Of a DNA stretch of 56,565 nt, positions 4,242 to 38,020 are shown in pieces. The stretch comes from an uncultured virus (IMG/VR IMGVR_UViG_3300035502_001146) (Duplodnaviria; Heunggongvirae; Uroviricota; Caudoviricetes): the IMG/VR virus record IMGVR_UViG_3300035502_001146, one strand, 5' to 3'. The notes below the pieces were generated by a model. It was not told the DNA's origin. It saw only the letters and a list, made by a program, of their open reading frames with translations, and did no database searches. The position numbers and the translations under genes were made by a program. Position 1 is the stretch's first letter, and each line of letters begins with the position of its first letter.

Positions 4242-4249
4242 AGGGGGGA

Positions 4250-6014: not shown

Positions 6015-6105
6015 AAAATTTCTTTATATAGGGTGGGTGATTAAAAACTCACCCTATACATAAAAAATGATAACTTTAAAAAATGCGAAAAGGGGATTTT
6101 TAATT

Positions 6106-6513: not shown

Positions 6514-6757
6514 TATTTAAAAGGAAATTTTAAAAAAGCTAATCTTAAAAAGAGCTATTCGATTATGAATAGCTTTTTTTATTTAAAGAAATTTTCTTTA
6601 ATATTTTCCTTAGTAAACAATTTAATAAAATAATTATTCTTTACAAACAAATGATTTTTAAAAACTATTGACAAATAACAAAAAAATGTGATATTATAAT
6701 AATTGTAAACGATAGATATTAAAAATTTTTTAATATGAAAGGAGAATTTAATTTACT

Positions 6758-7000
6758 ATGAAAGATTTTTTTACAATGAGCGGTTCTGAAAGAAATAAAA
6801 TATTAAGTGAACTGAATGAAAAATATCCAAGAGGTACAAGAGTTAAACTTGTAAAAATGAATGATTTTCAAGCACCGCCAATAAGTACAGAAGGTACTGT
6901 TAAAAGTATTGACGATATAGGTACAATTCATATTCAGTGGGATAATGGTTCTTCTTTAGGTGTAGCCTATGGTGAAGATGAGATAATGAAAGTAAATTAG
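6758..7000 (+). CDS. DUF4314-like protein
   Basis: YPRGTRVKL..MND..PP..TEGTV..IDDIG.IH..WDNGSSL....GED pattern. Confidence 0.8.
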   Translation: MKDFFTMSGSERNKILSELNEKYPRGTRVKLVKMNDFQAPPISTEGTVKSIDDIGTIHIQWDNGSSLGVAYGEDEIMKVN

Positions 7001-7017
7001 GAAAGGCGGTTTTTAAA

Positions 7018-7185
7018 ATGACAGTAAGAGAGAGATTTAATACATTAACAAGCGAACAGTTAGCCGAGGAGCTTGAAAGAATACAGAACTTAAAAGAATG
7101 TTATTCAGAGCTTGACAATATTTCCAATATGGCTGACTATCTTAATTCGGAATATTTGAATAATCAATACAGTGATTATGAATAA
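7018..7185 (+). CDS. small acidic hypothetical protein (55 aa, not in ORF track)
   Basis: GAAAGGCGG RBS, ATG 7018 to TAA 7185. Confidence 0.6.
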   Translation: MTVRERFNTLTSEQLAEELERIQNLKECYSELDNISNMADYLNSEYLNNQYSDYE

Positions 7186-7491
7186 AAAGCATTATAAATA
7201 AAAAATATTATGAATAAAAAGTGAGGTAAATATTTAAAACTTATTAAAGAGGGTTTAATCCCTCTTTTTTTATTTATAACAACTTAATTTATTTACAGAT
7301 ATTTAATAAATGATTTATTAAATATTCCATAGCTATATAACAAAAATGTTATAATAATTATAAATATTAAGTATTTGCAATTTACTAAACAGTGTGCTAT
7401 AATATATTTAGAAGTTAAGAGAGAACAGTTAATAAAACTCTTAGCTCACGCACACAAAACACACAGCAGACAGACGAAAGGTGGTTAAATT

Positions 7492-7806
7492 ATGAAGTTA
7501 ATGACTAAGGAAATCGAAAACGAGTTGAGGAAAAATCCAATTTACTCACACGATGGTGAGGGTATGAATGCGAAAGTAATTGTAAAGTTCTTTTCCCCTC
7601 GTGCTAATTTCACTTGGTTAGTTACCGAGGGTGAACAGCAAGAGGACGGAGATTGGTTATTCTTTGGCTATCATTATGTAGTTGTATGGGAGTGGGGATA
7701 TGTAAGATTATCTGACTTGCTTAGTTTGAATGACAGATTTGGTGATTGTTTTGTTGAGAGAGAAATGTACACCAAAAATAAAAATGTAAGAGAACTTGTA
7801 GCATAA
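7492..7806 (+). CDS. DUF2958-like protein
   Basis: KFF.P....TWLVTE...FFG...EWGYV.LS.L pattern. Confidence 0.8.
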   Translation: MKLMTKEIENELRKNPIYSHDGEGMNAKVIVKFFSPRANFTWLVTEGEQQEDGDWLFFGYHYVVVWEWGYVRLSDLLSLNDRFGDCFVEREMYTKNKNVRELVA

Positions 7807-7867
7807 ATATAAAAACTATCCCCTACCTTTAATATGGTAGGGGGGAATTTGAAAGGAGATTTTAATT

Positions 7868-8065
7868 ATGGAAAAAACAAAAATTTATGCAGTAGTAGGA
7901 ATTGAAGATTTAGAGGGTATGACTTTTGCACAGTGTACCACAATGGAAAAAGCCGAAAAGGCTATGGAACTTTTGGTTGAAAACGGCTTTGACGATATTG
8001 AAATAGTAGAAAGCAATTTAACGCTTGATGCTATTGAGGTTGAAGGCAAGTATTATGAACTGTAA
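7868..8065 (+). CDS. small acidic hypothetical protein
   Basis: GAAAGGAG RBS, 65 aa. Confidence 0.75.
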   Translation: MEKTKIYAVVGIEDLEGMTFAQCTTMEKAEKAMELLVENGFDDIEIVESNLTLDAIEVEGKYYEL

Positions 8066-8087
8066 TAATGAAAAGGGTGAATAGATA

Positions 8088-8321
8088 ATGAATAAAAGTG
8101 AATATGTGGAAAAAATAAGAAATATCTTTAGTAAATATAAATTAAGTGGTAGTCTGATTGAGTGTTCATATATCGAAGGAGTGAATACGGAAGATTTTAC
8201 AATCTGTTATGTGGATAGCCGTATAAAGAACAGTGGAAAAATAAGAAAGGAGTTGCACAATGTAATGGATAATTATTTCAATGATTATCCCACAGCCACA
8301 CAGCCGTTGTACAGTTATTAA
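8088..8321 (+). CDS. hypothetical protein
   Basis: RBS, terminator after stop. Confidence 0.7.
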   Translation: MNKSEYVEKIRNIFSKYKLSGSLIECSYIEGVNTEDFTICYVDSRIKNSGKIRKELHNVMDNYFNDYPTATQPLYSY

Positions 8322-8914
8322 AAAATGAAAGGTAGGTGAAATATCCTACCTTTTTTATTGTTTAAATTTAATTATCTTTTCTAATTATCCATCCTTTTTT
8401 TGCTGCTGCACAAACTTTGTTAATTTTTTAACAATCTTCGGCTCTTATTCTTATTAAATGATTTATTAAGAATAAATATTTAAAATTAAGTATTAAGAAA
8501 TTTATTTATTATAAGTTTAAATATTTAAAAATGATTTTCTTAAATAAATTACTTAAATGATTTGCTATATATATCTTTTTTCTTTACAGTACCTTTTACA
8601 CAATTTCTTTTACAATATCTCCCTTGTAATATTTCTGCTGCATAAAGCGTTATTTTCGATTATAAGAGCTGTTTATTTATTATTCAAAGAAATATACCAC
8701 ATAATTCAGCATAGCCTTAAAATCGATTATACGACTATTTAAAACCGCTTAGTATTTTATAATCATATAATTATAAACTTATAATAAATATAGGATTAAA
8801 GTATTTGCAATTTCCTATTTTATTTGTTATAATATATTTAGAAGTTAAGCAATGGTACTTAAATTTCTAACCGTAAACAATATAATCTTGAACTTTTGAA
8901 AGGAGTTTTGAACT

Positions 8915-15360: not shown

Positions 15361-15813
15361 ATTAAACCATCCTTTCAAAATGTAATAGATTAAGTGTTTG
15401 TTTCCTTTACTGTCTTTATTATAGCACATTACAGAATGAATTTCAAATACTTAAATCCTATATTTATTATAACATTATAATTATACGGGGGTTGAGCTGT
15501 TCTAAAATGTATTATTAAATAATTTATTATTAAAGAGGTTTGTTAAAAAAAGATTTTTTAAATAAATTTCTGTAAATAAAAAAGGGAGATTAAATCTCCC
15601 TCTGTATCATTCTCCTTTTTTATTTATCAACTATACTGTACCAATCATATCCGTAACATTTAAGTTCAGCGGCAGTAATAGAATTTATAAAATCGTGACT
15701 ATTCACATATTCATTTCTTGCTTTCATACTTTTAAATCTTAATAACACTTTCCTATTAGTTCCCCATACACCTTGCACTGCATAATAAGTTCTTTTCATA
15801 GTTCATTCTCCTT

Positions 15814-16002
15814 TCAGTGTGTTGCATTAAAGTTTTCGATTGCCCACTTGTTACCTGTTGCGTATACTGTATCTCTCGTTCTTTCGTATGGTGTAGGTTT
15901 TCTTTTAGAGGTCTTTTCCTTTTTAACCTCTTTTTCTTCTTTCCTCTGATACTCATCATCGCTGCTGATGTAAATCCCGAATAAGCTGTTGTAATATCCC
16001 AT
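15814..16002 (-). CDS. small phage protein (TPYER...VYATGNKWAIENFNATH)
   Basis: GAAAGGAG RBS before ATG 16002. Confidence 0.75.
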   Translation of the reverse strand: MGYYNSLFGIYISSDDEYQRKEEKEVKKEKTSKRKPTPYERTRDTVYATGNKWAIENFNATH

Positions 16003-16310
16003 ATTGATTACTCCTTTCATAACCATTCAGTAGTGTCTTGTTGTATTATTATAATATCACATTTTCTGTTATTTGTCAATAATAAATTCTTCATTATAGT
16101 AAAAAACAATTATTTATAATTTTTCTATAGGAAAAGTTTATACTGAAAAATCCCTATAAGTTTATTAAATGATTTATTAAGAAAAAAATTAAGAAGAAAA
16201 CTATTAAGAAAAAATCCATAAGATTTCAGTAAAAAAATAAAGGGTGAATGTTTACACCCTTTATAATAAATCTTTTCTATTTATCACCTACCTTTTATTT
16301 TGTCTGCTGA

Positions 16311-16723
16311 TTACAAGCCGTAATCGATATCATAGCATTGACTATAATATTCGTAACTATACCAAGAACTTTCAAGTTCATACTCATAGTCAACTTTTGA
16401 CATTGTAAGACAATCAAGATTTTCAAGAATTTCTTCACGTCTTGCAATTTCCTTTTTTAACGCTGCTATCTCGTCTTGTATCTGATTAGCAATCGTATGA
16501 TTACCAAACCTTGCAAGAGCTGTACTGAAAATCTCATTTTCAGCTATATCATTTCTGATACTTGCGATTTCTCTTGCTCTCTATTGATAGCTGCAATCTG
16601 TGGAGAAGGAACTATGATTGCATATTCTTTATTCTCCTTGATTGCCTTTTCAATAGCGTGAATTCTGTATGATATTCTGTCAAGTCTTTCTCTGTCCTGT
16701 GCTTTCTTTTCTGTGATTGTCAT
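16311..16723 (-). pseudogene. frameshifted hypothetical gene (~136 aa if repaired)
   Basis: promoter, GAAAGGGG RBS, ATG 16723; frame stops at ~16544 but a second frame stays open to TAA 16311; 413-nt span; AG repeat at ~16577-16583. Confidence 0.7.
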
Positions 16724-16889
16724 AATAAAAATCCCCTTTCAATGCTGTGTAGTGTTTGTGTTGCTTTCTTAACTATCTTTATTATATCACATTATCTGTT
16801 AATTGTCAAGAACTTTTTTAAGCTTGTGAAAAATAATTTATTTAATAAGAAAATATAAAGGGTAGATTAACTACCCCTTTATATAATTT

Positions 16890-17360
16890 TCAATCTAACT
16901 TAGCACTTATCTTCATATACGGTATACCTACTTTGCTTGCACATAACTCTCCCAACCCTGTCAAGATAGAAGATGTGGTTGTTAATGCCCTACCGCATCT
17001 ACCGCAACGGCAATGGTGATAGATTTCAACGGGAATATTATATCTACCGTTGTTTAATTTGTTAAGTACAAACATAATAGATTTTACAACCGTTGATTCA
17101 GCACTTGCATTACCTTTTTTACCCTGTCTATACTCAAACAGATTTTTATATTCGTTATAGTAAATAACACCACCGTATATATATTTTTCATAGCCGATTG
17201 AGTATCTCATAAAATAGATAAATCTGTTATCGTCTGTTTCTTGCTTAACAATTTTATATGTTAAATCGTTACCTGTTTTCAAAGAGTGCATCGTGAATTC
17301 TGATTTACCGCCTAACATAAACATTAAAGCGTTTTCATTCTTAACTAAATTCTTTTCCAT
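16890..17360 (-). CDS. DUF6011-like zinc-ribbon protein
   Basis: CGRCGRALT..SI..GLG..C; paralog of 17608. Confidence 0.75.
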   Translation of the reverse strand: MEKNLVKNENALMFMLGGKSEFTMHSLKTGNDLTYKIVKQETDDNRFIYFMRYSIGYEKYIYGGVIYYNEYKNLFEYRQGKKGNASAESTVVKSIMFVLNKLNNGRYNIPVEIYHHCRCGRCGRALTTTSSILTGLGELCASKVGIPYMKISAKLD

Positions 17361-17607
17361 AAAAGCAGTTCTCCCTTCGTCTATCAAAACATTTATTTAA
17401 GTATCATTGATTATGCTATTATAATACCATACTTTTTACTAATTGTCAATAGTTTTTTAAGATTATAATAAAAAACAATTATTTGTAATTTTTCTATAGG
17501 AAAAAATTATAGTGAGCTGTCTTAATAAATAATTTAATAAAGAAGCTTTTAATAAAAGAATTTTCTATAAATAAAAAAGGTAGATAAAAAATCTACCTTT
17601 TAAATAA

Positions 17608-18108
17608 TTAACTTATTTTAGTATTTATTCTTGCATAAGGTATCTGTACTTTTCTTGCACACTTTTCGCCTAACCCTGTTATGATTGAACCTGTTTTAGT
17701 TAATCTTCTACCACACCTACCACACTTGCAATGATGGTAAATCTCAATGGGTATGTTAAATCTGTTTTTATGAAATTTATTAAGTACAAATATAATTGAT
17801 TTTGCAACCTGTGATTCTTCTTTTGCAAAACCCTTGTAGCCTTTTTTAAAATAAAATTGGTTGGTTTTATCGTTATAGTAAATAACACCACCATATTCAT
17901 ATTTGCCATAACCGATTGAATAACTCATAAAATATATAAATACATTGTTATCCATTCTCTTGTGAAAAACTCTATTTGTTTCAAGTCGGATAAGCTTATA
18001 TGTTAAATCATTACCTGTTTTAAGTGAGTGCATTGTAAACTCACTATTACCGCCTAACATAAATTTTAATGCGTTTGCGTTGCTGATTATGTATTTTGAA
18101 TTTTCCAT
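17608..18108 (-). CDS. DUF6011-like zinc-ribbon protein (tandem paralog)
   Basis: CGRCGRRLT..SI..GLG..C; shares SEFTMHSLKTGNDLTYK with 16890 gene. Confidence 0.75.
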   Translation of the reverse strand: MENSKYIISNANALKFMLGGNSEFTMHSLKTGNDLTYKLIRLETNRVFHKRMDNNVFIYFMSYSIGYGKYEYGGVIYYNDKTNQFYFKKGYKGFAKEESQVAKSIIFVLNKFHKNRFNIPIEIYHHCKCGRCGRRLTKTGSIITGLGEKCARKVQIPYARINTKIS

Positions 18109-18226
18109 AAAAAATATCTCCTTCCTCGTCTATAAGACGGTTTATTTAAAAGTTATTGATTGTTAGAAATTATTGATTTTTTAAATAATTGATTATATGA
18201 GGGGAAATATATTCCCCTCTTTTTAC

Positions 18227-18511
18227 TTATATAAGCTCAAAATGTTTCAAAGTGTATGCTAATGCGGCAACTTCTCTATCGCTTGCAAATAAATCACCTC
18301 TTAAATTGACTACCGCTGTTATAAACTCCTTGTTGTTTTCATTTTCAAGGAATGTATCTCCAACGGCTACCATCTCCCTCACATTACTTATACTTTCCTC
18401 ATTCTCATAAAGAAAACTATAAGTAAATTTTATGTAATTTAAAACATCTGAATACTTAATCTTTTTGTATTCCTTGCCGTTCACGATTATCTTATCACTC
18501 TTTTTTAACAT
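18227..18511 (-). CDS. hypothetical protein
   Basis: GAAAGGTGG RBS before ATG 18511. Confidence 0.7.
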   Translation of the reverse strand: MLKKSDKIIVNGKEYKKIKYSDVLNYIKFTYSFLYENEESISNVREMVAVGDTFLENENNKEFITAVVNLRGDLFASDREVAALAYTLKHFELI

Positions 18512-18979
18512 ATAAAAAACCACCTTTCAGCTTACAACTGTTTTGTTTTTGTTTACAATATTATATTAACACAAAACAGTGGAAATTTCAAATACTTTAT
18601 ACCTATATTTATTATAAGTTATATGTTATATGATTTAATATTTAACGCTGCACATTACCGTAAATCATTTTGCAAATCGTACTGAATATTATTCTGAACA
18701 TTATTTTGAACGATTAGTTTTCTTTATCGCTTATAAGCTCTCATATTGCCCTGTATTGAATTTTAAATCGTTTACTTAACAATTTATCTATTAAAAATAA
18801 ATAGCTCATATAAAGCCGTTTAAACGATTATACAAAGATTTATTTGGAGCTGAATTATTAAAAAGATTTTAATTATTTAAAAGTTAATTATTTAAAAAAT
18901 TAAATATTTATTTTTTCACTATTAAATAATTTAAAAAGTTATTTGATGAAAATAAAAAAGGTGAGTTTTTAGCTCACCT

Positions 18980-19903
18980 TTAATAAAAGAATACATATTC
19001 TTGTTTAGTATTTAAATCACCATTATATTTAGCTGTTACCTCTGTGAAAAAGTTCTTTGCACAAAAAATTCTTTTGTTGGTTACAATATAATATTTATTG
19101 TTATTCTTTTCTTTTTTTAATAAATCAATCGCAACCTCTTTTAGCTGCTCAATGCTACCACCTTGAATATATTTGATAATCTTTTTAGATATAGTACACA
19201 ATATAGCTTGCTGTTGCTTTTCTCTATATTCTTTTATACTATCGTTTATTTCTTCTACATCATATTCATTAGTTATCTCTAATACCTGTTGGCTAATAAG
19301 ATAATTATGTTTTCTATATGGTAGAATAAATATATTATTAGGAAAATAAGTCTTTAACTCTTTTATCTGTTCAACAATATTCTGAACATTTTCCTGTGTT
19401 ATCTGCTCAACATTATTTTTTATTGTTACATCGTCAATCTCCCTTTCGTTTGTTTTCTTTATTATATTATTATCTAAATATATAAATGTCTTTTTCGCAA
19501 AAGCATTTTCACTGTTCTTAACCGCTGTGTTATTTATCTTTAAATTATAGAAAAAATCTTTAGTATTAGTTTCACCGATGCAAATACCAATATTTAATTT
19601 TTCTATATTATCATTTAAAATAATATTATCTTGAATAACCTTTTCTGAAAAGTCAACATCTCCAACAACATCAGTTTTACTGAATAGAAATTCGTTGTTT
19701 ATATTACGGCTAATTTTAGGCTTAGTAATTGAATTTACCTTTACAATAGTAAAGAATGGGTTTTCTCTTGCAAAATCAATCCTCGCCTGTTGCTGATTTT
19801 TTGATTTTATTATTTTACTATACAATTCTTTTGCTATAGGGGTGAACTTAGAAGTATCACTCTTTTTTCTATATGTTATTTTATATTCTTTTAAATTGCT
19901 CAT
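18980..19903 (-). CDS. hypothetical protein
   Basis: 307 aa, AGGAGG RBS, terminator. Confidence 0.8.
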   Translation of the reverse strand: MSNLKEYKITYRKKSDTSKFTPIAKELYSKIIKSKNQQQARIDFARENPFFTIVKVNSITKPKISRNINNEFLFSKTDVVGDVDFSEKVIQDNIILNDNIEKLNIGICIGETNTKDFFYNLKINNTAVKNSENAFAKKTFIYLDNNIIKKTNEREIDDVTIKNNVEQITQENVQNIVEQIKELKTYFPNNIFILPYRKHNYLISQQVLEITNEYDVEEINDSIKEYREKQQQAILCTISKKIIKYIQGGSIEQLKEVAIDLLKKEKNNNKYYIVTNKRIFCAKNFFTEVTAKYNGDLNTKQEYVFFY

Positions 19904-20012
19904 AGTTAAGACCTCCTAAATAATAATTTTTATATATTTCTCTCTAATAATTCTCCTTAATGATTAAAATCTCTCTTATCAAAAAAGGGTAGAATTATCT
20001 ACCCTTTATTCT

Positions 20013-20228
20013 TTACTCACCAAAATCATAGCATAAGACTTGACTTAATACTTTTACTATTGGCATTATCTCTTTTTCATCTCCTGTTGCAAGCACACAT
20101 TGATATGCGTGATATTCAAGCTGTGGTCTGCTTGCGAGTACTAATTTACCATTAGTATAATTCAGCAGACCTTTCAATCCCTTCTTTTCAGCCAACTTAT
20201 TATAATCGTTAATTTCGTAATCTAACAT
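20013..20228 (-). CDS. hypothetical protein
   Basis: AAGGGGAG RBS. Confidence 0.7.
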   Translation of the reverse strand: MLDYEINDYNKLAEKKGLKGLLNYTNGKLVLASRPQLEYHAYQCVLATGDEKEIMPIVKVLSQVLCYDFGE

Positions 20229-20248
20229 TTTAAATATCTCCCCTTTCC

Positions 20249-20410
20249 TTAACCGAAGAAATCATCTTCTACAAAATCGATGCCCTCATAATTGTCATAG
20301 ATAACCTCGTTTGGTACATCCAATACACAATCATAGTCATTGTCATTTGAATAGAAATAATCCCACTTTAAAAATTCTAACTGCCTTTCGTTTAATTCTT
20401 GTACTTTCAT
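20249..20410 (-). CDS. small acidic hypothetical protein
   Basis: start moved to ATG 20410 after AAAGGAG RBS. Confidence 0.7.
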   Translation of the reverse strand: MKVQELNERQLEFLKWDYFYSNDNDYDCVLDVPNEVIYDNYEGIDFVEDDFFG

Positions 20411-20726
20411 TTTACATTCTCCTTTCAAGAGTTCAAGTATTTTGTTTCCTTTACTGTAATTAGTATACCACACAATTAAATAAAATTCAAATACTTATTT
20501 CCTATAATTATTATAAGTTTTTATTTATAATGAGCTACAAAAATGTTTTTCTATAAAACTTTGAATTATATTAAATAATTCATTAAAGTATGTATATATA
20601 AAAAATGAGGGGATAACCTTCTGCAAGGAGTCCACCTCATTACTTAATTTTAGTATGTAAATATCTAAATCCTTTTTGAAGTAAAATAAGTAGCTCGGCT
20701 TTTCATTAAGCTCTGCTACTTATTTT

Positions 20727-21502: not shown

Positions 21503-23497
21503 TTGGCTATGAATGAAATGATTAAAGGTAGGATTGTTAGATTAAGAAATCTAATAAATAACCAAAATGAATTATACTTTAAAAATTCTTCTGAAAATAA
21601 TATCTCTGATTCATTGTACGATAAACTTTTAGAAGAATTAAAAAAGTTGGAAGAACAATTCCCCGAATTTAAAGATAGTAATTCTCCTACACAAAATATT
21701 GGTGATTATGTAGATGAAAACTCATTTAATAAAGTAAATCATAAAATTCCTATGTTGTCTTTAGATAAAGTTTTATCTATAGAGCAATTTAACGATTGGT
21801 TTAAAAAAGCATTTAATAAATTAAATATTAAAGAATTTATTATTGAATATAAATTTGATGGTCTTGCAAATTCTTTAGTATATGAAAATGGTTATTTGAC
21901 ACAAGCAAGTACAAGAGGTAATGGAAAAGTCGGCGAAGATAATACTGCAACTGCAAAACTTATTCCTAATATTCCATATTATATAGAACAATTTAAGGAT
22001 ATTGAAAAAGTAGAAGTAAGAGGGGAAATTCTTTTATTAAAGGAAGGTTTAAATGAAATAAATAAAAATCTATCCGAAGATAATCAATATAAAAATGTTA
22101 GAAATGCTGCAAGCGGTATTTTAAAGAATAAATTACCTAATACTGACTACTGTAAATATTTAATATTCTCACCATACGGTTATTATGAAAATGACGATTT
22201 TTATAATGATACTTACTTAAAAGATATTAAATTATTAAAGGATATATTTATTACTCCATATAAAACTTTAGCAGCTATTAAAGTAAATAATATTGATAAT
22301 GCTATAGAAAAATTAAACACTTTATTTAATGAAGTATATGAAGGTAGAAATAATTTAAATATTGATATTGATGGTATTGTAATTAAAGCTAATAAATATG
22401 ACGATTGGAATAGACTTGGTATAGGTAAAAAATATCCTAACTATGCTGTAGCTTATAAGTTCCCAGCAATGGAAAATACAAGCATATTATTAGATGTTGA
22501 ATGGTGTTTAGGTGGTAAGGGGGCTATTACTCCTAAGGCTGTGATAGAGCCTGTTCAAATAGGTGGTTCAACTATTGGTTATGCTACACTGCATAATATT
22601 CAGTATATTAAAAACTTAGATTTAAAGCTCGGTGATACTGTAATTGTATCAAAAAGAGGCGATGTGATACCCTGTATCGAGTCTGTAATAAAAGATTTAA
22701 GAAGTGGTGAAGAAAAGGAAATAACTATTCCTACTGTCTGCCCATCTTGTGGGCAACCTTTAAAATCTAATACTACTGATAAAGGTATTTTCCTTTACTG
22801 TGATAATGAAAATTGTATAGGTATGCAAGTCAATAAAATAGAAAACTTTATTAAGGCTATGGAAATTGATAATTTCGGTACTGTACTTATAAATAAATTA
22901 TTTAGTAATGGTAAATTAAAAACCTTTATTGATATTTATAAATTAAATAAAAATGATATTTCCTCATTGGAAAAGATGGGAGATAAATCAGCAGATAAAG
23001 TAATAAGTAATATTGAAAAATCAAAAGATAATGAATTAAGTCAAATAATAGACGGTTTAATGATTAAGAGCGTATCTAAGGAAAAAGGTAAGATATTGCA
23101 AGATAAATATAAAACCTTGGATAAGTTTATAAATTGTACGGAAGAAGAATTGTTATCTTTACCCACATTTGGGGAAATATTAGTAAATAATATCTTGGAA
23201 TATGTAAATAAGAATAAAGATATAATAAACGATTTAATTAAATTGGGTATAATTGGTAAAGTAAAAAATAATAGTGGTAAATTAAATAATAAATCATTTT
23301 GTTTTACGGGTAAGTTAAGTATATCAAGAAATGAAATGACAGATATTATAGAAAATAATGGTGGTACTGTTAGCAGCATTAAAAAGGGTACTGACTATTT
23401 AATTATTGGTGAGGGGGCTAAAGAGAATAAAATTGATAAAGCTAAAAGTTATGGTATTGAAGTAATTACTGAAAAGGAATTTAATAATTTACTTTAA
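21503..23497 (+). CDS. ligA: NAD+-dependent DNA ligase
   Basis: H..PMLSL, EYKFDG (KxDG), STRGNG, EVRGE, DGIVIK, AYKF, CPSC..C..C zinc finger, HhH region, C-terminal BRCT (FCFTG..GG). Confidence 0.97.
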   Translation: MAMNEMIKGRIVRLRNLINNQNELYFKNSSENNISDSLYDKLLEELKKLEEQFPEFKDSNSPTQNIGDYVDENSFNKVNHKIPMLSLDKVLSIEQFNDWFKKAFNKLNIKEFIIEYKFDGLANSLVYENGYLTQASTRGNGKVGEDNTATAKLIPNIPYYIEQFKDIEKVEVRGEILLLKEGLNEINKNLSEDNQYKNVRNAASGILKNKLPNTDYCKYLIFSPYGYYENDDFYNDTYLKDIKLLKDIFITPYKTLAAIKVNNIDNAIEKLNTLFNEVYEGRNNLNIDIDGIVIKANKYDDWNRLGIGKKYPNYAVAYKFPAMENTSILLDVEWCLGGKGAITPKAVIEPVQIGGSTIGYATLHNIQYIKNLDLKLGDTVIVSKRGDVIPCIESVIKDLRSGEEKEITIPTVCPSCGQPLKSNTTDKGIFLYCDNENCIGMQVNKIENFIKAMEIDNFGTVLINKLFSNGKLKTFIDIYKLNKNDISSLEKMGDKSADKVISNIEKSKDNELSQIIDGLMIKSVSKEKGKILQDKYKTLDKFINCTEEELLSLPTFGEILVNNILEYVNKNKDIINDLIKLGIIGKVKNNSGKLNNKSFCFTGKLSISRNEMTDIIENNGGTVSSIKKGTDYLIIGEGAKENKIDKAKSYGIEVITEKEFNNLL

Positions 23498-23918
23498 TTA
23501 AATAATTTATAATAATATTCTTTAAATATTTTCTTCTAAATATTTTTTTAACAATAAAAGGTATATACATTTCTTAATTAAATAAGAGCTGTGTATATCT
23601 TTTTTATTAATTCATTATTAAATTGTTTATTATTAAATTATCTATTATACATAAATTTAAATATAAATATTTTATTGAGCTGAATATTTAATTATTTTAT
23701 TCATAATTTAATAAATAGTTTAATAATTCATTTGCTGATTATTCTCTTAATATTTAATCATTTATTAAAATTATAAAATGAATAAATTATAAGAAAAGTG
23801 AATAAAAAACTTTTTATATACGGGATAAAATGAATAAAATAGTGAATATTATTGAATAATGATGTATAAATTATAATCTTATAATTAACATTAATTCTTC
23901 TTTTTTATTAAAAACTTA

Positions 23919-23947
23919 TTGACAAACTATAAAAAGTATGGTATAAT
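23919..23947 (+). promoter_or_regulatory. consensus promoter for the 24007 + Cas12f-like operon
   Basis: TTGACA-N17-TATAAT with TG extension. Confidence 0.85.
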
Positions 23948-24006
23948 AAATTATGTTAAAAACAAAACACTAATTTTAAGAGAAATTTAAGAAAGGAGTT
24001 TAATGT

Positions 24007-24414
24007 ATGAAAAGAATAGTCGAAGATACTGACACTTTTATTTATTACAATGCTAACCCTAAGAATAGAATAACAGGGGATTGTGTTTTTAGAGCTATTT
24101 CATTAGCAACTGAAAAAGATTATAAAGATGTTGTATTGGAAATGACAAACACAATGCTTGAAACGGGTTATTGTTTAAATGACAAAAAGGGCATTGAAAA
24201 GTATATGCAAAAAATTGGTTGGGTAAAAATGAAGCAGCCGAAGAAATATGATAATACAAAGTATACAGGTGAAGAATTTTGTAAATTATTTAAAGGTACT
24301 TGTATTGCTAAAATCGGTACACATCATATAACTTGTATTAAGGATAATAAGATATATGATACTTGGGATTGTTGTGATGGAAAAATTGGTAACTATTGGG
24401 TTAAGGCTGAATAA
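24007..24414 (+). CDS. phage protein with possible papain-like Cys-His-Asp motifs
   Basis: NANPK....GDCVFRAI ... HITCIKD..IYDTWD. Confidence 0.7.
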   Translation: MKRIVEDTDTFIYYNANPKNRITGDCVFRAISLATEKDYKDVVLEMTNTMLETGYCLNDKKGIEKYMQKIGWVKMKQPKKYDNTKYTGEEFCKLFKGTCIAKIGTHHITCIKDNKIYDTWDCCDGKIGNYWVKAE

Positions 24415-24434
24415 ATCAAAGGAGGAATTTTTAA

Positions 24435-25871
24435 ATGAGCAATGAAGATAAAACAATGATTATATGTAGAAAAATTACACTCACACCACTTGGTGATAAA
24501 GCGGAAGTAGATAGGGTATATAAATTTATTCGTGATGGACAAAAAGCTCAATATAAAGCTCTTAATCTCTTTATGAGTAAATATGCAAATTTATATTATA
24601 AGTATAATTGCGATAAAACTAATGAAGATTATAAAAAAGAAGTAAAAGAAATGCGTAGAGCTGCGTATTATAATTCATTATATAACTCTGCTGATATTGT
24701 TTTCTGTACGGGTGTTGATACTCAATCTTTAGTATCTAAAAAGGTTATAAGTGATTTCGATACTGCATACAATAATGGTTTAAAGCGTGGTGAAAGAAGT
24801 ATAAATAATTATAAATCTGACTCCCCTCTTATGACAAGACATATTAATTTGAAGTTTAATTATGATTATGCAACCGAGGAAGAATTTTTACAACATTTAA
24901 ATAGTCAAGATTTATCTATAACTATGGGTTGGGTAAATCATATTAAATTTAAAGTTAATTTCGGTAAGGGTAAAAATGTTAAAAAGTCTTATGAATTGAG
25001 AAGTGTATTCAAAAAGATTTTAGTAGATAAAACTTATTCTGTTAGGGATAGCTCAATTACTATTGAAGATAATAAAATCATTCTTAATTTGTCTTTGAGA
25101 ATACCTAAGAATATTGTTGAGCTTGACAATAATACTGTTGTAGGTGTTGACCTTGGTATTGCTGTTCCTGCTGTGTGTGCAACTAATAATACTATAGCAA
25201 AACAGTTTTTAGGTTCAAAAGATGATTTCTTGAAAACAAGAACGCAAATACAAAACCAAAGAAGAAGATTATATAGTGCTTTGAAAAATTCTAATGGTGG
25301 TAAGGGTAGAGATAAAAAACTTAAAGCCGTAAATAAATTTTCTGAAAAGGAAAAGAATTTTGTTGCTACTTATAATCATACTATAAGTAAACAAATTGTT
25401 GATTTTGCCATAGCTAATAAAGCTAAGTATATCAATGTGGAAGATTTAGAGGGTTATGATACAGATAAATTTGTTTTGAGAAATTGGTCTTATTATCAAC
25501 TGCAATCACAAATTGAATATAAAGCAGCTAAGTACGGTATTGAATTAAGAAAAGTAGACCCATATCATACCTCACAAAATTGCTCTTCTTGTGGTCATTG
25601 GGAAGAAGGTCAAAGGAATGGTAGATATTTTGAATGTAAGGCTTGTGGAGCTAAAATGAATGCTGATTTAAACGCCGCAAGGAATATTGCTTTATCTGCT
25701 AATATTACTTATGCTGATGGAAAGAAGATAGAAACTAATACTACTGATGTTCCTAAAAAGAAAACTTATAAGAAAAAGTCTAAGGCGGTAAATAAAGCAG
25801 TGAATAAAATTAAAGAAAAGAATAAAACTAACAATATAACAGATAATGTAACTACTAAAGAAGTAATTTAA
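24435..25871 (+). CDS. Cas12f1-like (type V-F/TnpB superfamily) RNA-guided nuclease, no adjacent array
   Basis: RuvC I VGVDLG, RuvC II INVEDL, LRNWSYYQLQ..IEYKA, CSSC/CKAC zinc ribbon, RuvC III NADLNAARNI; GL.RGERSI.NYK...PL and GGKGR.KKL motifs as recalled from clostridial Cas12f1. Confidence 0.85.
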   Translation: MSNEDKTMIICRKITLTPLGDKAEVDRVYKFIRDGQKAQYKALNLFMSKYANLYYKYNCDKTNEDYKKEVKEMRRAAYYNSLYNSADIVFCTGVDTQSLVSKKVISDFDTAYNNGLKRGERSINNYKSDSPLMTRHINLKFNYDYATEEEFLQHLNSQDLSITMGWVNHIKFKVNFGKGKNVKKSYELRSVFKKILVDKTYSVRDSSITIEDNKIILNLSLRIPKNIVELDNNTVVGVDLGIAVPAVCATNNTIAKQFLGSKDDFLKTRTQIQNQRRRLYSALKNSNGGKGRDKKLKAVNKFSEKEKNFVATYNHTISKQIVDFAIANKAKYINVEDLEGYDTDKFVLRNWSYYQLQSQIEYKAAKYGIELRKVDPYHTSQNCSSCGHWEEGQRNGRYFECKACGAKMNADLNAARNIALSANITYADGKKIETNTTDVPKKKTYKKKSKAVNKAVNKIKEKNKTNNITDNVTTKEVI

Positions 25872-25879
25872 TATTTATT

Positions 25880-25907
25880 AAGGGTACTAACACAAGTACC
25901 CTTTTTT
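25880..25907 (+). terminator. intrinsic terminator after Cas12f-like gene
   Basis: AAGGGTACT-loop-AGTACCCTT followed by T-run. Confidence 0.8.
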
Positions 25908-26024
25908 GTTATTGACAAATAATAAATTTTGTGATATAATACTAATAGTGAAATGTTTATAAAAACTTTTATAATTTTAAAAAGCTATTTATAATTAAGG
26001 GCTTATTTTTAAAGAGGTGTTTAT

Positions 26025-26210
26025 ATGGTTCACGATACTATAATTTTTCATAATACGGAAGAAAAAATAATCAACGATAGAAAAGAGTTATGTTCTTCTG
26101 TTATTAAAGAAAAGAAAAATTTCAATAACTTATATTCTATATCTGATAATACACCTATTCTTTACAGTAGGAAAAGTTTAGGAAAAATTGTATTGATAGA
26201 TAATAGATAA
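26025..26210 (+). CDS. hypothetical protein
   Basis: GAGGTG RBS, promoter 25912-25940. Confidence 0.6.
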   Translation: MVHDTIIFHNTEEKIINDRKELCSSVIKEKKNFNNLYSISDNTPILYSRKSLGKIVLIDNR

Positions 26211-26246
26211 ATCAATCTATACTAAATTTTATAAGGAGGATTTGTT

Positions 26247-26618
26247 ATGAGTTGGGATTTTTATTTATGCGATTCAGTGTCTAAAGAAGTTTTGACTATT
26301 GATAGTCCGCATTTTATGTTCGGTGGTACTTATTGCCCTAATGGTACTAATCAACTGCATCTAAATATAACTTATAATTATTCTAAAGTTATAAACCCTG
26401 CTATGTTTGATGTGCCACAAGAGGAAACTTATGCAAAAGTCTTTAATGGTAAGTCTGCATTGGAAACTATTCCTTTATTAAATAAGGCTATAAGTAATCT
26501 ATCTGATAATACAGACGAGGATTATTGGAACCCTACCGAGGGTAACGCTAAGAGAGCTTTGATTCAATTATTGACTATTGCTAAAATGCGTCCAGACGGT
26601 ATTTGGCAAGTAAGTTAA
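26247..26618 (+). CDS. hypothetical phage protein
   Basis: AAGGAGG RBS; MSWD...LNITYNYS...DYW.PTEGNAK. Confidence 0.8.
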   Translation: MSWDFYLCDSVSKEVLTIDSPHFMFGGTYCPNGTNQLHLNITYNYSKVINPAMFDVPQEETYAKVFNGKSALETIPLLNKAISNLSDNTDEDYWNPTEGNAKRALIQLLTIAKMRPDGIWQVS

Positions 26619-26945: not shown

Positions 26946-27358
26946 TTTTGTATCTATTGAATAAAAAGACTAATAATAAAATAACTTTTAATGAATTGTT
27001 TGAGCTTGTTAAATATAATCAATCTTTAAAAATTGGCAGCTCTGCTGATATTCTATTATTATTTATAAATATGTATAAGGGTGAAATTAGATTTTTTTCA
27101 GATACTATAGATATGGATAATATTGATTTTATTTTGAAATTATATGGAGCTGATATTTCTAATATCTCTTATTATACTAAATTATCAAATAATGAATTTT
27201 CTGATGTGTTGGATAATCTAATTGTTGATAAACAAATATCTATTCATACTTTGGATAATTTAAATATTATTGGTTATGTTTATTTCTCTTGTATTTATGA
27301 TATAGATAACTTTTTAAAAGCTATACCTTCAATAAGTTCTTTACTTGATTATGAATAA
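26942..27358 (+). CDS. hypothetical protein
   Basis: start overlaps previous stop, AAGGGGG RBS. Confidence 0.6.
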   Translation: MILYLLNKKTNNKITFNELFELVKYNQSLKIGSSADILLLFINMYKGEIRFFSDTIDMDNIDFILKLYGADISNISYYTKLSNNEFSDVLDNLIVDKQISIHTLDNLNIIGYVYFSCIYDIDNFLKAIPSISSLLDYE

Positions 27359-27436
27359 TATTGCGAATAATATAATTATTTTTTTTATAAGGGTGAGTGT
27401 AAAATTCACCCTTGTTTTTATTTATTTAATTTTTCC

Positions 27437-29221
27437 CTAATAGGGTAGTAATATTTTTACCATTTATATAATCAATTTATTTGCCCTTATATTTAATGAT
27501 AATTATTTTAATGTATTATTTATTTAATTATTTATTTATCTATTTATAATGGCTTTATAATTTATTTAGGCACTTGATTATTTATTGGTTTACTTTGTAA
27601 TTTTTCTTTATATATTAAATTCGTCTATTAGGGTAGTTGATATTTTAAGTTTAATATTTAAAGTTTTTATAATTTAATCATTTATTATTCTTTTTCTTAT
27701 TAGATGGTTTAATATTATTTATATTTATTGTTTTAGCTCTGTTGGATTTTTTATTTATTTATCTAATAATTGTTAAGGTATTTATTAAATAATCTAATTA
27801 TCTTAATTTTACCTAACAGGGTAGTTGCTTTTTTAGCCTATATATAATAGCTTTATTTCGCCTTGTATTGAACGATAGATATTTCATTGTATATTTTATC
27901 TGCTTTATTATTTACGCTGCGTAGGAGCTGAATAAGCGATTTATAAATTGATTATATAATTATCTATCTATTGTAAATAATATTTATTTTTGGTTTAGTG
28001 GTATTCAGTTTCTTATATACCTATTTTATGTATATGATAATTTTACTTATTAGGAAGTTTATATTTTTATTTATTATAAATATTCTTAATTAAATATTTA
28101 TCTTAATATACTTTATCTATTATTAAATGTTTTCGTTTAAATATAAAAAAGCTCATCGGAGCTGTAATTGATTTATATTGTTATTTAGTCTATTGTTTTA
28201 TAAGTGATTGATTTTTTATATGCTATTTATTGTATATTGTTATTTCGTCTATTAGGGTACAACCTTTTTAGCTCTTAGAATAAAGTAGTATTGAATAATT
28301 AAATATTTTACTATAATAAATAATTTCCCTTTATATACTTGTTTCACCTAATAGGGTAGTAATATTTCCCCCCATTATTCGGGAGAAAAGTATTTTAATA
28401 ATATATTTATTTAAAACACCTATGGAGCTGAATATATTTAAAACTATTTTTTAGTAAATTTTTCTTAATAAATCATTTAATAAGCAATAATACCTATTAG
28501 GGTAGTCATTATTATTGGATATTTATTATAATGTAATTTAAATGTTTAAAATAAAAATAAAGGATAGATTTTTATTTCTATCCTTTATTTATGTAATAAT
28601 TATTCATTTGTTTGATTTTACCTAATAGGGTAGTTGACTTTTTTACCTACAAATATATGTTGTACTAAATGAGGTTTGAAATGTTCTAACTACTTGACCT
28701 TGTATAAAGTTTGCTTGCCAAATACAGCCTTGTGAATTTGGTGGTCTATACCCATTCAATAATTTTATGGCTGCATCTATTGACCGTCTGCTGGGGTAGT
28801 TATATATTGTACCATTGATATAGGTTTCATATTGACCTGTTTGGGTAATAACACCTTTTACTGTATTAGGAAATTGTGAACTATCAACTCTATTCATAAC
28901 TACTGTACCTACCCACAATTTATGTTCGTCTGTACAACAATCAGAAGCTTCAGCATCTATCACTCGGCTCAACCAATACAGGTCCTCATCTGAATAATTC
29001 TGAACGGTTGTAGCCTCTGTTGTTGTGTCTATTAGGGTAGTCGGCTGTATGGTAGTAGTTTGTACTTGTATTGTTGTCGTTTCGCTTGCTATCTCATAGG
29101 CTATTGGTGAAATGTCTATTAGAGTAGTCGTTGCTATGGGAATTTCAGTGGTCAACTGTATAACATCCGCACTATTGCCATTAGCGGCTGTATAGGATTT
29201 TTCAATACCTGTTAGGGTAGT
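27437..29221 (+). repeat. 11 same-orientation copies of a 13-mer, consensus CTAWTAGGGTAGT
   Basis: copies at 27437, 27625, 27813, 28249, 28348, 28494, 28622, 28788, 29029, 29116, 29209. Confidence 0.9.
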
Positions 29222-30519: not shown

Positions 30520-30621
30520 AGTCATTTCCTCCTTGAAATTCAGAACCATTATATTAAATGGTTTAGTTATAGGTTTTGTGTTATCGGTGCGGCGTTGCCC
30601 TCACCTTTATGGTAATTACAT

Positions 30622-30766
30622 TATACCATACTTTTTAGCATTTGTCAATAGGTTTTTTAAAGTTTTTTCATATTTTTTAAAACTTTTTTTTCGACCGCCT
30701 TGTGTGCCGTTGTTGTCATTTCCCTTTGACACTTATTATTATACTACAACGACCACCAATTGTCAA
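30622..30766 (-). promoter_or_regulatory. two tandem consensus promoters
   Basis: minus-strand TTGACA...TATAAT at ~30648 and ~30766. Confidence 0.75.
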
Positions 30767-33020
30767 ATACTTTTTTAAGTAAATTTGCAATTTCATTTAT
30801 TTGCACAAAAACTTTTTTAGTTTAATATTTTTTGATTGTGCAATATTTATAATATTAAACTGATTCCAGCAAAAAATCAGCATTGTATATATTGATTTTT
30901 AAAAAACCCGTAAAGCCTTTATTTAAAGGACTTGCAAGCCTTTTAATTTTGATTTTCTGAATAATTCCTTCTATTACATAAAAACAAACATTTTTGCATT
31001 GTGTGTTTTATATTATATTTCATAATATTCAATGCTTGCATATACCTCATATTTGCCGTTTATTTGCTTGTTTAACGGCGTTTTAACTTGTATGCGTGGA
31101 ATTTATCGACTATGCAAATGAACCGCCGTAAAATGCAAAATAACGCATTATAAGCCTATGTTTGACTTTTTGAGTATGACGGCAGGCAATAACTAATTTT
31201 ATTTTTGGTATCTGATTGAGTATTAGCTTGTATATGCTTGTAAATACGCTTTAAATGGCTTTATTTGCCTTTTATTTGCTTGTATAGATAATTTATACCA
31301 CAACGCAAAATACCGCCGTATATGGGCAAAATAAAGCGATATACAGCGGTATTGTATTTTGTTGTTTTTTGGTTCGATGTGATTTTTGCTTGCGTCCAGA
31401 AAATTGATTTTTCAGATATATACATTTTTTCCAATTTATACCATATAACAAATATTGTATAATTCTTTTAATCATTATATGGAAAATAGTATAATAAATT
31501 TTTCGCCTTTTTTCAGAATTTACGACTTTATGTTATAATCTGAATAATAGTTATAACAAAATTGGTATGGAAAAATCGGCTTTAAATATTTAACAAAAAT
31601 AAGCCTTGTTTTTTAAACAAAATGTTCAAAAATTGCTTGTTTAATGTGTTCAAAAACACAATATGATATTTGTATATATTTAACAATGATAAAATCGGCT
31701 ATTTTACAAAAATATAGCTAAAAAACCGCCTAAAAATGACCTTGTTTTTAAACAAAATTACAATAGCTAAAAATCAGCGTTATGTACAAAAATAACATAT
31801 TTAAAAGGTGAATTTTGTATATAAACACAACAAAATTCTTAAATATATTTTTTAAAAATGTACAAAAATAATTAAAAAATAGGCTAATTTTTAGGTAAAA
31901 ACAGAGAAAAATAAGGGTAAAAATAGCCTAAAAAGTGCCTAAAAAAGTCGCCAAAAAAACCCGTTTTTTGTATATATTGCTGGGCATACCCCCCTTAAAT
32001 TACGGGGTAATTTTTGAGCTGGTTTTTAGGAAAGCAACAATTATCAAACGGCATTTATTGAGCTATATTTATATATGTTATTTAATTATTGTTTCTTTAT
32101 ATGTTATTTCTCTATACATTATTTTCTCTATATATAATTTAATGATTTTTTGTAGAATAAAATACTATGGTAAAAAATTTTCATGAAAAAATTTTGAGAA
32201 AAACGGGCTGGGTAATTATAAAAAGAAATATTAAATATTTTATTAAATGGTTTATTAAGATAATCTATTGTTTATTCTTTGTTTATTTTTTTTATTTGTT
32301 GTTAAATGTTTTAATAAGCGAACTATAAATAATCGTTTCTATAAATCTTTCTTATAAACCGTTTCTATAAATTATTTCTATATATAAATTTTAATCGTTT
32401 TCTATAGAACAAAACTCTATGGCGAAAAAATTTCATGAATTTTTTTTGGGAAAATAGGGTGGTAGATTATTTAATGGCTGTAATAAATAATTATTATATA
32501 TTGTAATTGTTTTTCATAATAGAGCTTTTATTATTAAAATATTCTTTACTGTTTATTGTTTATCTCTTATTATCAGAAATATTATTAGAAGTTTATTTAT
32601 TGTTTTATTATTTATTATTAACTCATAAAATCGCTTATACTTTTTTTACATAATATTTACTGCTGCAACATTTGATTATTTTTCTTTATAACAGAGCTTT
32701 CCTTATAATAATTTTTACTCATTCTCTATAGATAAAAACCCTATATAAAAAATTTTCATGAAAAAAATTTGGAAAAACGCCCTTAGAAAGAATATTATTA
32801 AAAAGAATATTATTAGAAAGAATATTGTTGGATTAAAATATTTTTATTTATGATAGCGTTTTATTTATAATTGTTTTTTTAATAATCTTCTTTTTGTAAA
32901 GAAAACAATAAAATAAGAGGGTTTTATTATACCCTCTTAGTATTGATTATAAATTTCATTTTTCTTTTACTTCGTTCAATAGATAAACTTATATTTAAAT
33001 CAAATTTTATATAATAGCTT

Positions 33021-36523: not shown

Positions 36524-38020
36524 TTAAATATATACTAATCCACTATTATTCCTAATAATGGTACAGTCTTTTGTAGGATAGTTTGTATTTTTGTCACCTA
36601 CTGCACGAAGATATTGTCCATTAGAAAGCTGACCACTCATAGTATAAATCTTGTTCTTATACTCAAATTGAGTTCCTGGCATAAGTCTATTTTTAGTATT
36701 ATATCTTCTAGTACTCTTAGTAACTTGTAATTTGGATTGAAGCTTTCTAGCTTCTAATTTTCCAAATTGTTGCTTAGTTTTGATATACCATTCATGTAAT
36801 GAATCTTCTTTTTGGTCCATACGTTTTCTTCTATTCTTAGCAACAATTTGGTTATCTAACTTATAAACTCTCTCTGTTTGAGCTTTGACAATACTTCTAT
36901 TATGTTTTCTAAATTGTTTCAATTGAAAACAATCTTCAGGAATATCTAATAAAAAATTATCGTTATCTTTTAAAATACTTACTGCTATACAATAGGCATC
37001 TATATTATGGTCTTTCTTAATATTAAATTCATTTCTAAAGCATTTGGTATTGTAACCGTTGGTTACAATCACTTCATACTTTTTAGACAATTCATTTATT
37101 AGAAATGGAATAATTTGATTTAATACTGATAAAGCACCATACTTTTTATTTAATCCATTCTTTTTAGTTAATAATTTTTTATTCCATTTCTCATTATTAT
37201 GAACCAAAGTATGGTGCTTTTCACATACACCTGCTATATTAGATATAGTGTTACTACCACCTTTACTTTTAGAAATTATATGATGATAATGGTCTATTTT
37301 ATTTTTACATAAAATACAATGACAATTTTGTTGCTCATTTATGGCTTCTTCTAATGAACCTTTTTTATATAAAGGACCTCTAGTATAATCCAACTTTCTA
37401 ACATTAGGATTATCTAAAGCCATAAATGCAAATTTATTAATTTCTATTACAATAGTTTGAATAGGAAGAAGAGACGAAGTCTTTTCTACTTTATTCAAAT
37501 GTGTTTGTAATAGTTGTCTTGCAGTAGGAGTGAGCCACCCTACATCTCTTTTCCTATTGCAAAATTTAGATTCTGAATTGATAATATCATATATAAAAAT
37601 AGGCTTATCGTATTTAGGTAAAATTCTTTCTTTAGGATAAGAAAATATAGTATTACACTTTTTAGCTCTTCTCTTACGGCATAGGCGTTCACCTCTACGT
37701 GAAGCCATTCTATGAACTTTACGATTAGCCATAAGTTTAGGTATTTCCTTATTCCTAGTTTCTGTATGAGCTGAATATAGTGTTTTACCGTCTATCCTGA
37801 TAGCTGTATCACCTATATTAGTTCTACCTGGGTCGATACCTAAAATTATAGGTTGAACCACTTTTGTTTTAGTTTCATACAATAGTTGTATGGTAAAAGG
37901 TTTTCTGTTCACCATTTTAGCTTTTTTAGATTTCAATAATCTATACACTTTACCAGAACGGATTGTAGGCATAAGTAGTGAACCGTTTAAATCTAAAACA
38001 TATATAATTGACATACCCAC
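36524..38020 (-). CDS. iscB: IscB RNA-guided endonuclease
   Basis: LLMP (PLMP) N-terminus, PFTIQL, RuvC I LGIDPG, Arg-rich bridge helix, IVIE, HNH (C..C...HH....GGSN...N...C..HH), RuvC III H.IDA. Confidence 0.92.
   Translation of the reverse strand: MGMSIIYVLDLNGSLLMPTIRSGKVYRLLKSKKAKMVNRKPFTIQLLYETKTKVVQPIILGIDPGRTNIGDTAIRIDGKTLYSAHTETRNKEIPKLMANRKVHRMASRRGERLCRKRRAKKCNTIFSYPKERILPKYDKPIFIYDIINSESKFCNRKRDVGWLTPTARQLLQTHLNKVEKTSSLLPIQTIVIEINKFAFMALDNPNVRKLDYTRGPLYKKGSLEEAINEQQNCHCILCKNKIDHYHHIISKSKGGSNTISNIAGVCEKHHTLVHNNEKWNKKLLTKKNGLNKKYGALSVLNQIIPFLINELSKKYEVIVTNGYNTKCFRNEFNIKKDHNIDAYCIAVSILKDNDNFLLDIPEDCFQLKQFRKHNRSIVKAQTERVYKLDNQIVAKNRRKRMDQKEDSLHEWYIKTKQQFGKLEARKLQSKLQVTKSTRRYNTKNRLMPGTQFEYKNKIYTMSGQLSNGQYLRAVGDKNTNYPTKDCTIIRNNSGLVYI

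Follow-up and report, generated by a model that had tools for sequence, protein, structure and literature searches.

The window analysed here, a stretch of 56,565 nucleotides, is a fragment of an AT-rich phage genome with genes for NAD ligase, cell-wall hydrolase, terminase and homing endonucleases. Two open reading frames, 24007-24414 (135 aa) and 24435-25871 (478 aa), were both confirmed in it, and the gap of 20 nt between them given in the original prediction is exact in ORF coordinates. A sibling phage, G001 (379 kb, rated complete), encodes a Cas12f that is 69% identical to the window protein and has the same genes upstream and downstream. The following features were assigned in the window:

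7492..8072, + strand: cassette-free allele, an intact DUF2958 gene and a short gene, from comparison with a cassette site in G001
23919..23947, + strand: sigma-70/sigma-A-type promoter (TTGACA-17-TATAAT, extended -10) upstream of both genes, a 12/12 consensus match by pattern only
24007..24414, + strand: 135-aa phage protein with a predicted papain-like cysteine-protease fold (invariant C26, H107, D118; structure model), probably an unrelated operon neighbour
24435..25871, + strand: Cas12f1/V-U3 nuclease, 478 aa, from PADLOC and PDB profile matches and dN/dS
24717..24845, + strand: predicted PAM-reading region with D95 and R135 kept and I137, from alignment to RhCas12f residues
25704..25871, + strand: Lys-rich C-terminal tail, not conserved and with no sign of an omegaRNA (sibling DNA match, strain protein, folding z-score)
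25880..25903, + strand: intrinsic terminator-like hairpin 8 nt past the Cas12f stop, the sole terminator-like site in 23400-26300
25912..25940, + strand: promoter of the next transcription unit, 12/12 sigma-70-type, by pattern

The terminator, expected within about 10 nt of the stop codon, is a hairpin that starts 8 nt after it, and the transcription unit beyond (a 61-aa ORF at 26025-26210 and the genes that follow) is syntenic in G001 throughout. A perfect promoter stands ahead of the gene pair and a second one behind the terminator, which leaves no space for a tracrRNA or an array in the Cas12f unit. Co-transcription of the two genes is predicted from the promoter and terminator patterns.

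The 135-aa protein belongs to a family that is widespread in phages (200 homologs among 206 candidates; 28 phage records), with C26, H107 and D118 invariant in 110 aligned homologs. Pfam gave no match for it, and its lead in the Atlas was a C39-bearing cluster (20% of members). The structure model (pLDDT 96) has papain-like peptidases as its top structural matches, with Z 6.2-6.6 (best rmsd 3.8, 101 aligned), a range that is common according to the tool, and a best Foldseek E of 0.017; from this model, a papain-like fold is predicted. A functional link to Cas12f is not supported, since the family lies next to Cas12f in only two of 17 viral loci, both of G001 type. The synteny of the gene pair is thus preserved in G001 but absent from the other 15 loci, which are without Cas12f, and the protein is probably an unrelated operon neighbour. 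One weak match to it (24%) was found at locus L017, 4.5 kb from the Cas12f gene.

Several other elements were observed in the window. An IscB of 498 aa is encoded at 36524-38020 on the minus strand (NCBIfam guided_IscB 197 bits, cut-off 175), and a PHROG 2059 anti-restriction protein at 49137-49694 (E 5e-17). The terminase region at 53640-56516 holds three copies of an element of about 380 nt, with an IS605-type TnpB ORF (54473-55669) after the second copy; these elements contain words that we take to be those of a group I intron core. Many copies of the same element occur in G001 at 124.8-129 kb and one at 310 kb, and the Rfam model Intron_gpI has a match at 125.5 kb. A family of 90-nt promoter-like units, repeated about ten times, stands ahead of small genes on both strands at 1536-8855 and 15397-20529. 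Short repeats also occur in long non-coding stretches at 27358-28643 and 30550-33020, which may be features of an origin or of a genome end; these include CCTAATAGGGTAG-like repeats at 188-nt spacing and 85-nt repeats at 32123-32782.

Identity of the 478-aa nuclease

The ORF at 24435-25871 matches the PADLOC models Cas12f (E 1.5e-112) and Cas12u3 (E 1.6e-109) along their whole length, and its best PDB relatives are Cas12f-type, namely 8hr5 (E 5.7e-96), followed by 9nzp (E 1.6e-77), whereas the TnpB entries 8bf8 and 8h1j reach 3.6e-06. The entry 8hr5, listed under the title 'Transposase', is presumably CnCas12f1, and 9NZP is RhCas12f according to a table in the available part of PMC13186708. 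The RuvC triad, rightly described as intact from the start, consists of D239, E336 and D411 (E336 and D411 in 118/118 homologs, D239 in 116/118), and the zinc finger of C383, C386, C401 and C404, two CxxC pairs. A length of 400-500 aa, a RuvC D-E-D triad, a TNB zinc finger and a full-length Cas12f profile match, which together characterize Cas12f1 proteins, were all found. On the strength of these sequence matches, the earlier Cas12f1-like assignment is sound, and the window protein is a Cas12f1/V-U3 nuclease, not an IS TnpB.

Identity as a common IS200/IS605 TnpB whose 3' end contains an omegaRNA would suit the annotation by JGI (IS605 OrfB transposase) and the NCBIfam guided_TnpB score of 186.9 bits (cut-off 100), yet the more specific IS200_TnpB model gives 66 bits against a cut-off of 425, and the HTH_OrfB (IS605) domain is absent from the nuclease, though the TnpB encoded at 54473 in the window has it. 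Towards its 3' end, the nuclease gene shows neither conservation nor structure (folding z-score -0.42 for 25690-25960), and a terminator lies 8 nt past the stop. There is one copy of the gene, which has kept its neighbours in G001 at dS ~1.1, and no TnpA was found among the neighbour genes scanned around it, in agreement with the claim that IS ends are lacking. In a quick tree (46 rows, with 16 of 120 database proteins used and with eight near-duplicate viral loci and partial loci left out), the path from the protein is 0.9-1.0 to Cas12f homologs and 8.9 to the window's own TnpB, so that the phylogenetic check first proposed places it near the former and not in a cluster with IS TnpBs. Since the root falls on the query branch, and is unreliable, when distant TnpB outgroups are included, this tree shows distance from TnpB rather than nesting. 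With HTH domain, curated score, 3' end, copy number and tree distance all against it, identity as an IS TnpB was rejected, and its chance can be regarded as negligible.

The final 55 aa do contain 15 Lys, as had been noticed for a Lys-rich tail of about this length. However, the DNA match of the nuclease gene to the sibling stops at 25720, the G001 protein has 456 aa, and a near-identical strain protein (P0241) has 451 aa, ending 27 residues earlier in another frame. Because the 3' end is unconserved and unstructured and the strain protein ends in another frame, there is no support for an omegaRNA; the Lys-rich tail is not conserved, nor does any role for it find support in these comparisons.

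Judged by a dN/dS of 0.19 against the G001 gene at dS ~1.1 and by an equal departure from 145 conserved columns (14 in the window protein, 15 in that of G001), the Cas12f gene is retained in place under purifying selection. The window protein occurs on contigs of up to 118.6 kb and the G001 protein on contigs of up to 502.7 kb. The residues named for PAM recognition by RhCas12f in the accessible text of PMC13186708 are D77, R117 and R119. All three are retained in G001, and the window protein retains D95 and R135 but has I137 in place of the arginine equivalent to R119, in a column that holds Arg in 100 of 118 homologs as well as in G001, and Ile in two. This Arg-to-Ile difference predicts a changed PAM.

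Guide RNAs in the window, its relatives and the sibling phage

The claim that the window has neither an array nor space for a tracrRNA agrees with repeat, covariance-model and motif searches. There were no CRISPR-like repeat pairs in it, bar one AT-only 16-mer, no Rfam match anywhere in it, and no match to repeat and cassette motifs; the best match to the tracrRNA covariance model (E 0.67) lies inside the ORF 17608-18108, and a profile of the G001 cassettes gave a best E of 0.16. Two candidates were rejected, a tracr-like regex match at 18020-18052, which lies inside that conserved ORF at E 0.67, and a hairpin at 27390-27415, which is terminator-like (cassette profile E 1.6).

Among relatives, the RNA is usually found at the gene. 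Comparison covered 22 viral Cas12f loci, of which 20 are 42-55% identical and two (L001 and L002) represent one sibling phage type, that of G001. In all 20 more distant homologs, a tracrRNA core adjoins the Cas12f gene (18 were recognized by covariance model R1, for whose construction 12 of these 18 loci served, and two by motif), mostly followed by short arrays. In metagenome and genome loci, a core lies beside the gene in 25 of 29, the remaining four being three short contigs and L113, a homolog close to L105 that constitutes a second bare case, with no tracrRNA or array in its flanks. Such adjacency of tracrRNA and array to the effector was found neither in the window nor beside the G001 gene.

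The loci also differ in their RNA units. Two or three tracrRNA-array units surround one Cas12f gene at L007, L015, L016-L019, L021, L105 and L118, often with different repeat ends and matching loops. Repeats of 36 nt with 30-nt spacers occur at L022, L121, L126 and L127, and repeats of 30-32 nt with longer spacers at L007-L021, as if members of one nuclease family borrowed different host adaptation modules. Very short stand-alone cores ending in repeat-like GTACAAAA were seen 3-4.6 kb from the Cas12f gene (L008:1383-1452 and 2928-2997; L010:3001-3070); these are possible natural single-guide RNAs and a possible intermediate stage of dispersal.

In G001, which has one Cas12f (54.3-55.6 kb) and three weakly similar TnpBs, five tracrRNA cores were located at 4.0, 83.4, 279.3, 332.9 and 354.4 kb, that is, 28-299 kb from the Cas12f gene. 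These cores have a 70-nt longer hairpin, and each cassette stands behind its own TTGACA-TATAAT consensus promoter. In four of them the core is followed by a leader and then by 30-nt repeats with 34-37-nt spacers; the 83-kb cassette has no array (repeats per cassette, in the above order, 1, 0, 8, 3 and 9). Cas1, Cas2, Cas4 and Cas6 were not found in G001, while the search controls gave matches. The 83-kb cassette cuts the DUF2958 gene after codon 21 and replaces most of this gene and the next, and both are intact in the window at 7492-8072, which suggests, from the comparison of these two alleles, that tracrRNA cassettes may move between sites. This site, empty in the window, is the only G001 cassette site that the window covers; the other four of the five map to regions outside its coverage, and no cassette lies within its 56.6 kb.

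Across the family, the core loop can pair with the end of the repeat. For 10 distinct combinations of loop and repeat, the 6-nt loop and the repeat end are complementary at 51 of 60 positions (mean of shuffles 32.6; reached in 0 of 10000 shuffles), a count made on related sequences with rows picked by eye, from which 9 of 28 rows with fewer than four stem pairs were dropped. The 4-kb cassette of G001 contributes a compensatory loop:repeat pair, ATTTGC/GCAAAA. Taken by itself, the long anti-repeat duplex does not exceed chance, as 87 of 500 shuffles were equally strong. Pairing between the loop and the repeat 3' end corresponds to the pseudoknot described for Cas12 tracrRNAs in the available part of bioRxiv 10.1101/2025.01.20.633832, and it was observed in the cassettes of the sibling, i.e., in RNAs of the G001 lineage.

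A genome-wide model search, in which 150 of 217 candidates were scored, returned no matches and missed all five G001 cassettes, which were found by direct search of pieces; for this reason, the blank results for G008-G010 and G002 mean little. A weak match to the cassette profile near 52.9 kb in G001 (E 0.01, 60 nt) contains no core. A 16-nt core pattern occurs in 24 viral stretches, comprising 16 G001-type cassettes and eight chance matches in unrelated coding DNA, and two further cassette patterns retrieved G001-type cassettes only. One contig of 5.2 kb, G011, comes from a related strain (89% identical) and carries an allele of the 333-kb cassette whose three spacers are different ones. The genes around the 333-kb cassette (L063:9950-18148, G001 330-338 kb) appear to form a cluster of DNA methyltransferase genes, one of which was scored as D12 class and the others recognized by eye.

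Spacers, their targets and possible roles

Two of the 21 G001 spacer candidates (L060_8 and L063_2) match G001 beyond chance. L060_8 matches the beginning of a helicase gene that bears an intein, with one mismatch in 35 (synonymous, of U:G type, at position 3), a CCA flank and 0/40 shuffles. The site lies 1,965 nt away from the array; as a near-perfect self-target with an intact CCA, it may gain no protection from a mismatch at position 3. For L063_2, the own-genome match is to a gene situated about 1 kb from the cassette, with six mismatches and a CTA flank (0/40 shuffles), and the match in strain G011 has four mismatches and a CCA flank; G011 is not its exact target, since three PAM-proximal mismatches remain. 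Conversely, G011 spacer 1, of 23 nt only, has a match in G001 with two mismatches and a CCT flank (0/200 shuffles), at a distance of about 2 kb from the cassette, and five mismatches to its own G011 allele. Thus, at the 333-kb cassette, each strain matches the allele of the other better than its own. Each of the three located targets lies within about 2 kb of its cassette, with a CCA or CCT flank at the best match (3/3), where CCW makes up 1.5% of positions and a 5-kb zone 1.3% of the G001 genome; as two of the targets share one cassette, they are not fully independent.

Other searches for targets were negative. For 19 of the 21 G001 candidates and two of the three G011 spacers no target was found; two G001 arrays gave chance-level matches only against the phage collection, exact searches with two spacers retrieved G001-type copies only, and a peptide-level search yielded nothing beyond the two known matches (scores 53 and 51; shuffled maximum 42). 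In cis-type relatives, 0 of 59 unique spacers match their own flanks at six or fewer mismatches, and 0 of 3 L022 spacers match G004. The CCA/CCT flanks of the sibling lineage fit both the three PAM residues retained by G001 and the 5'-NCCD PAM given for RhCas12f1 in the accessible portion of PMC10090079.

On balance, we lean towards a model in which a Cas12f encoded apart from its RNAs obtains its guides from scattered tracrRNA-array cassettes and acts against related phages. Cas12f1 would be a working enzyme separated from its RNAs; tracrRNA and repeats would be expressed from stand-alone jumbo-phage cassettes (promoter, tracrRNA, leader, 30-nt repeats and 34-37-nt spacers), as in G001; the tracrRNA loop would pair with the final 6 nt of the repeat; and DNA cleavage by the complex would occur beside a 5'-CC(A/T) PAM. 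Since the phage is without adaptation proteins, spacers would probably be added by those of the host. The benefit would arise when related phages infect the same cell and compete, and the phage's own allele would drift away from its spacer; such competition appears the most likely role because the targets are sister-phage alleles of genes that adjoin the cassette. The window's own genome presumably carries cassettes by analogy with the sibling lineage, from which all guide evidence comes, and we infer that the system is expressed and cleaves and that spacer acquisition is host-driven. The original prediction of guidance in trans therefore survives as far as distant arrays in the syntenic sibling are concerned, and its idea of phage competition survives as seen in G001; no evidence was found for host RNAs as guides, for an attack on host DNA or for guide sequestration. 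A cognate array elsewhere, which it had named as the contrary case, does exist in the sibling, although as several stand-alone tracrRNA-array cassettes and not as one standard locus.

A possible but tentative extension of this model is RNA-guided homing in jumbo phages, in which one unlinked Cas12f would serve several mobile tracrRNA-array cassettes with spacers against rival alleles of flanking genes. Cutting at co-infection, followed by repair from the resistant genome, would spread the cassette, and the whole would be a reprogrammable counterpart of free-standing homing endonucleases.

The same split anatomy might, however, serve general defence against other mobile elements, the neighbour-matching spacers being by-products of uptake near the array with subsequent escape of the phage's own copy. 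Spacer acquisition can be biased towards the vicinity of the array itself. Most spacers match nothing near their cassette, and flank matches are missing from the cis-type relatives and from the comparison of L022 with G004, as general defence would have it; yet none of the three targets that were located is farther than about 2 kb from the cassette that holds its spacer, and the two strains compared at the 333-kb site each match the other better than themselves. By-product uptake explains where a spacer comes from, not why two strains retain different ones, and general defence appears unlikely, even though acquisition near broken DNA ends is also favoured in type I-B according to the available text of PMC8406132.

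Less likely again is an orphan gene in the window lineage, from which cassettes would have been lost and in which the nuclease would be kept as a decoy or loaded with the guides of a co-infecting phage. The 56.6 kb without a cassette, the empty allele at the 83-kb site, the Arg-to-Ile change at a contact with PAM and guide, and L113 as another homolog with bare flanks are all consistent with such a loss. Nonetheless, four of the five G001 cassettes are in regions beyond window coverage, conserved residues are not lost in excess relative to G001 (14 vs. 15 of 145), and two strain proteins of the nuclease keep a full-length RuvC. It would be more improbable still that the distant arrays are viral mini-arrays for a host type I-B system, unrelated to Cas12f. 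With 30-nt repeats ending in AAT and 34-37-nt spacers, they do resemble type I-B arrays, but type I-B needs no tracrRNA, and ahead of every array here stands a Cas12f-type tracrRNA core whose loop can pair with the end of the repeat, a pairing that includes a compensatory change. There is precedent for viral mini-arrays that rely on Cas proteins of the host (PMC11656645, available part), and C. difficile type I-B has CCW/YCN PAMs, with acquisition next to CCN, in the accessible part of PMC8406132, so that the flanks do not discriminate. The CCW flank is weaker as proof of Cas12f because it also fits clostridial type I-B, yet this offers a source of PAM-correct spacers for the split Cas12f system that we favour.

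Relation to known systems

The nearest known enzymes, RhCas12f1 (PDB 9nzp) and PDB 8hr5, of the C-rich-PAM V-F1/V-U3 type, share with the window protein full-length homology, the RuvC triad and the zinc finger, and, in the sibling, a probable tracrRNA pseudoknot to the repeat end and a probable CC-type PAM. They differ in that here effector and RNAs are unlinked, with five cassettes per genome in G001 and, in the window protein, Ile in place of one PAM-reading Arg. With the free-standing homing endonucleases of T4-like phages, the rival's allele of a nearby gene is cut and the resistant own allele is spared, which favours inheritance of the linked DNA; in the present case, an RNA would provide the specificity, the gene of the nuclease is not linked, and the drive is hypothetical.

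Phage type V systems without adaptation genes are already known (PMC7162821 and PMC12607003, in the portions available). Those of huge phages (PMC7162821) and Cas12r of Thermus phages (bioRxiv 10.64898/2026.04.20.719267) likewise have compact arrays, no Cas1/2/4 and spacers against mobile elements, but their effectors adjoin the arrays, and dispersed tracrRNA cassettes or flank-targeting spacers are not reported in the accessible text. Viral mini-CRISPR arrays, as described in part of PMC11656645, resemble the cassettes in being stand-alone and short, with host-like repeats and related-virus targets; they depend on host Cas proteins and have no tracrRNA, whereas here there is a Cas12f tracrRNA per array and a phage-borne nuclease. 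Stand-alone omegaRNAs for IscB and TnpB (PMC10691335, available sections) are also guide units away from the nuclease gene that add targets in trans, but as single transposon-end guides, in contrast to a tracrRNA and multi-spacer array with new spacers per strain.

In the part of the literature that was covered, we found no phage Cas12f described as unlinked from its RNAs, with tracrRNA cassettes dispersed over the genome or with spacers that target cassette flanks. What may be new here, to the extent of that coverage, is the combination of an unlinked Cas12f with dispersed cassettes, together with spacers against the cassette's own flanks. Searches for CRISPR effectors scan 10-20 kb around arrays, according to the accessible parts of PMC10691335, PMC12607003 and bioRxiv 10.1101/2025.01.20.633832, and a Cas12f that lies tens to hundreds of kb from its arrays is consequently filed as a transposase, as was done by JGI in this case. 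G001 supplies a natural tracrRNA, repeat and PAM, which makes the pair of enzymes directly testable. If flank-targeting spacers drive their cassettes, the result would be a CRISPR gene drive that operates naturally between phages, and it would provide a new answer to the question of why phages keep type V systems.
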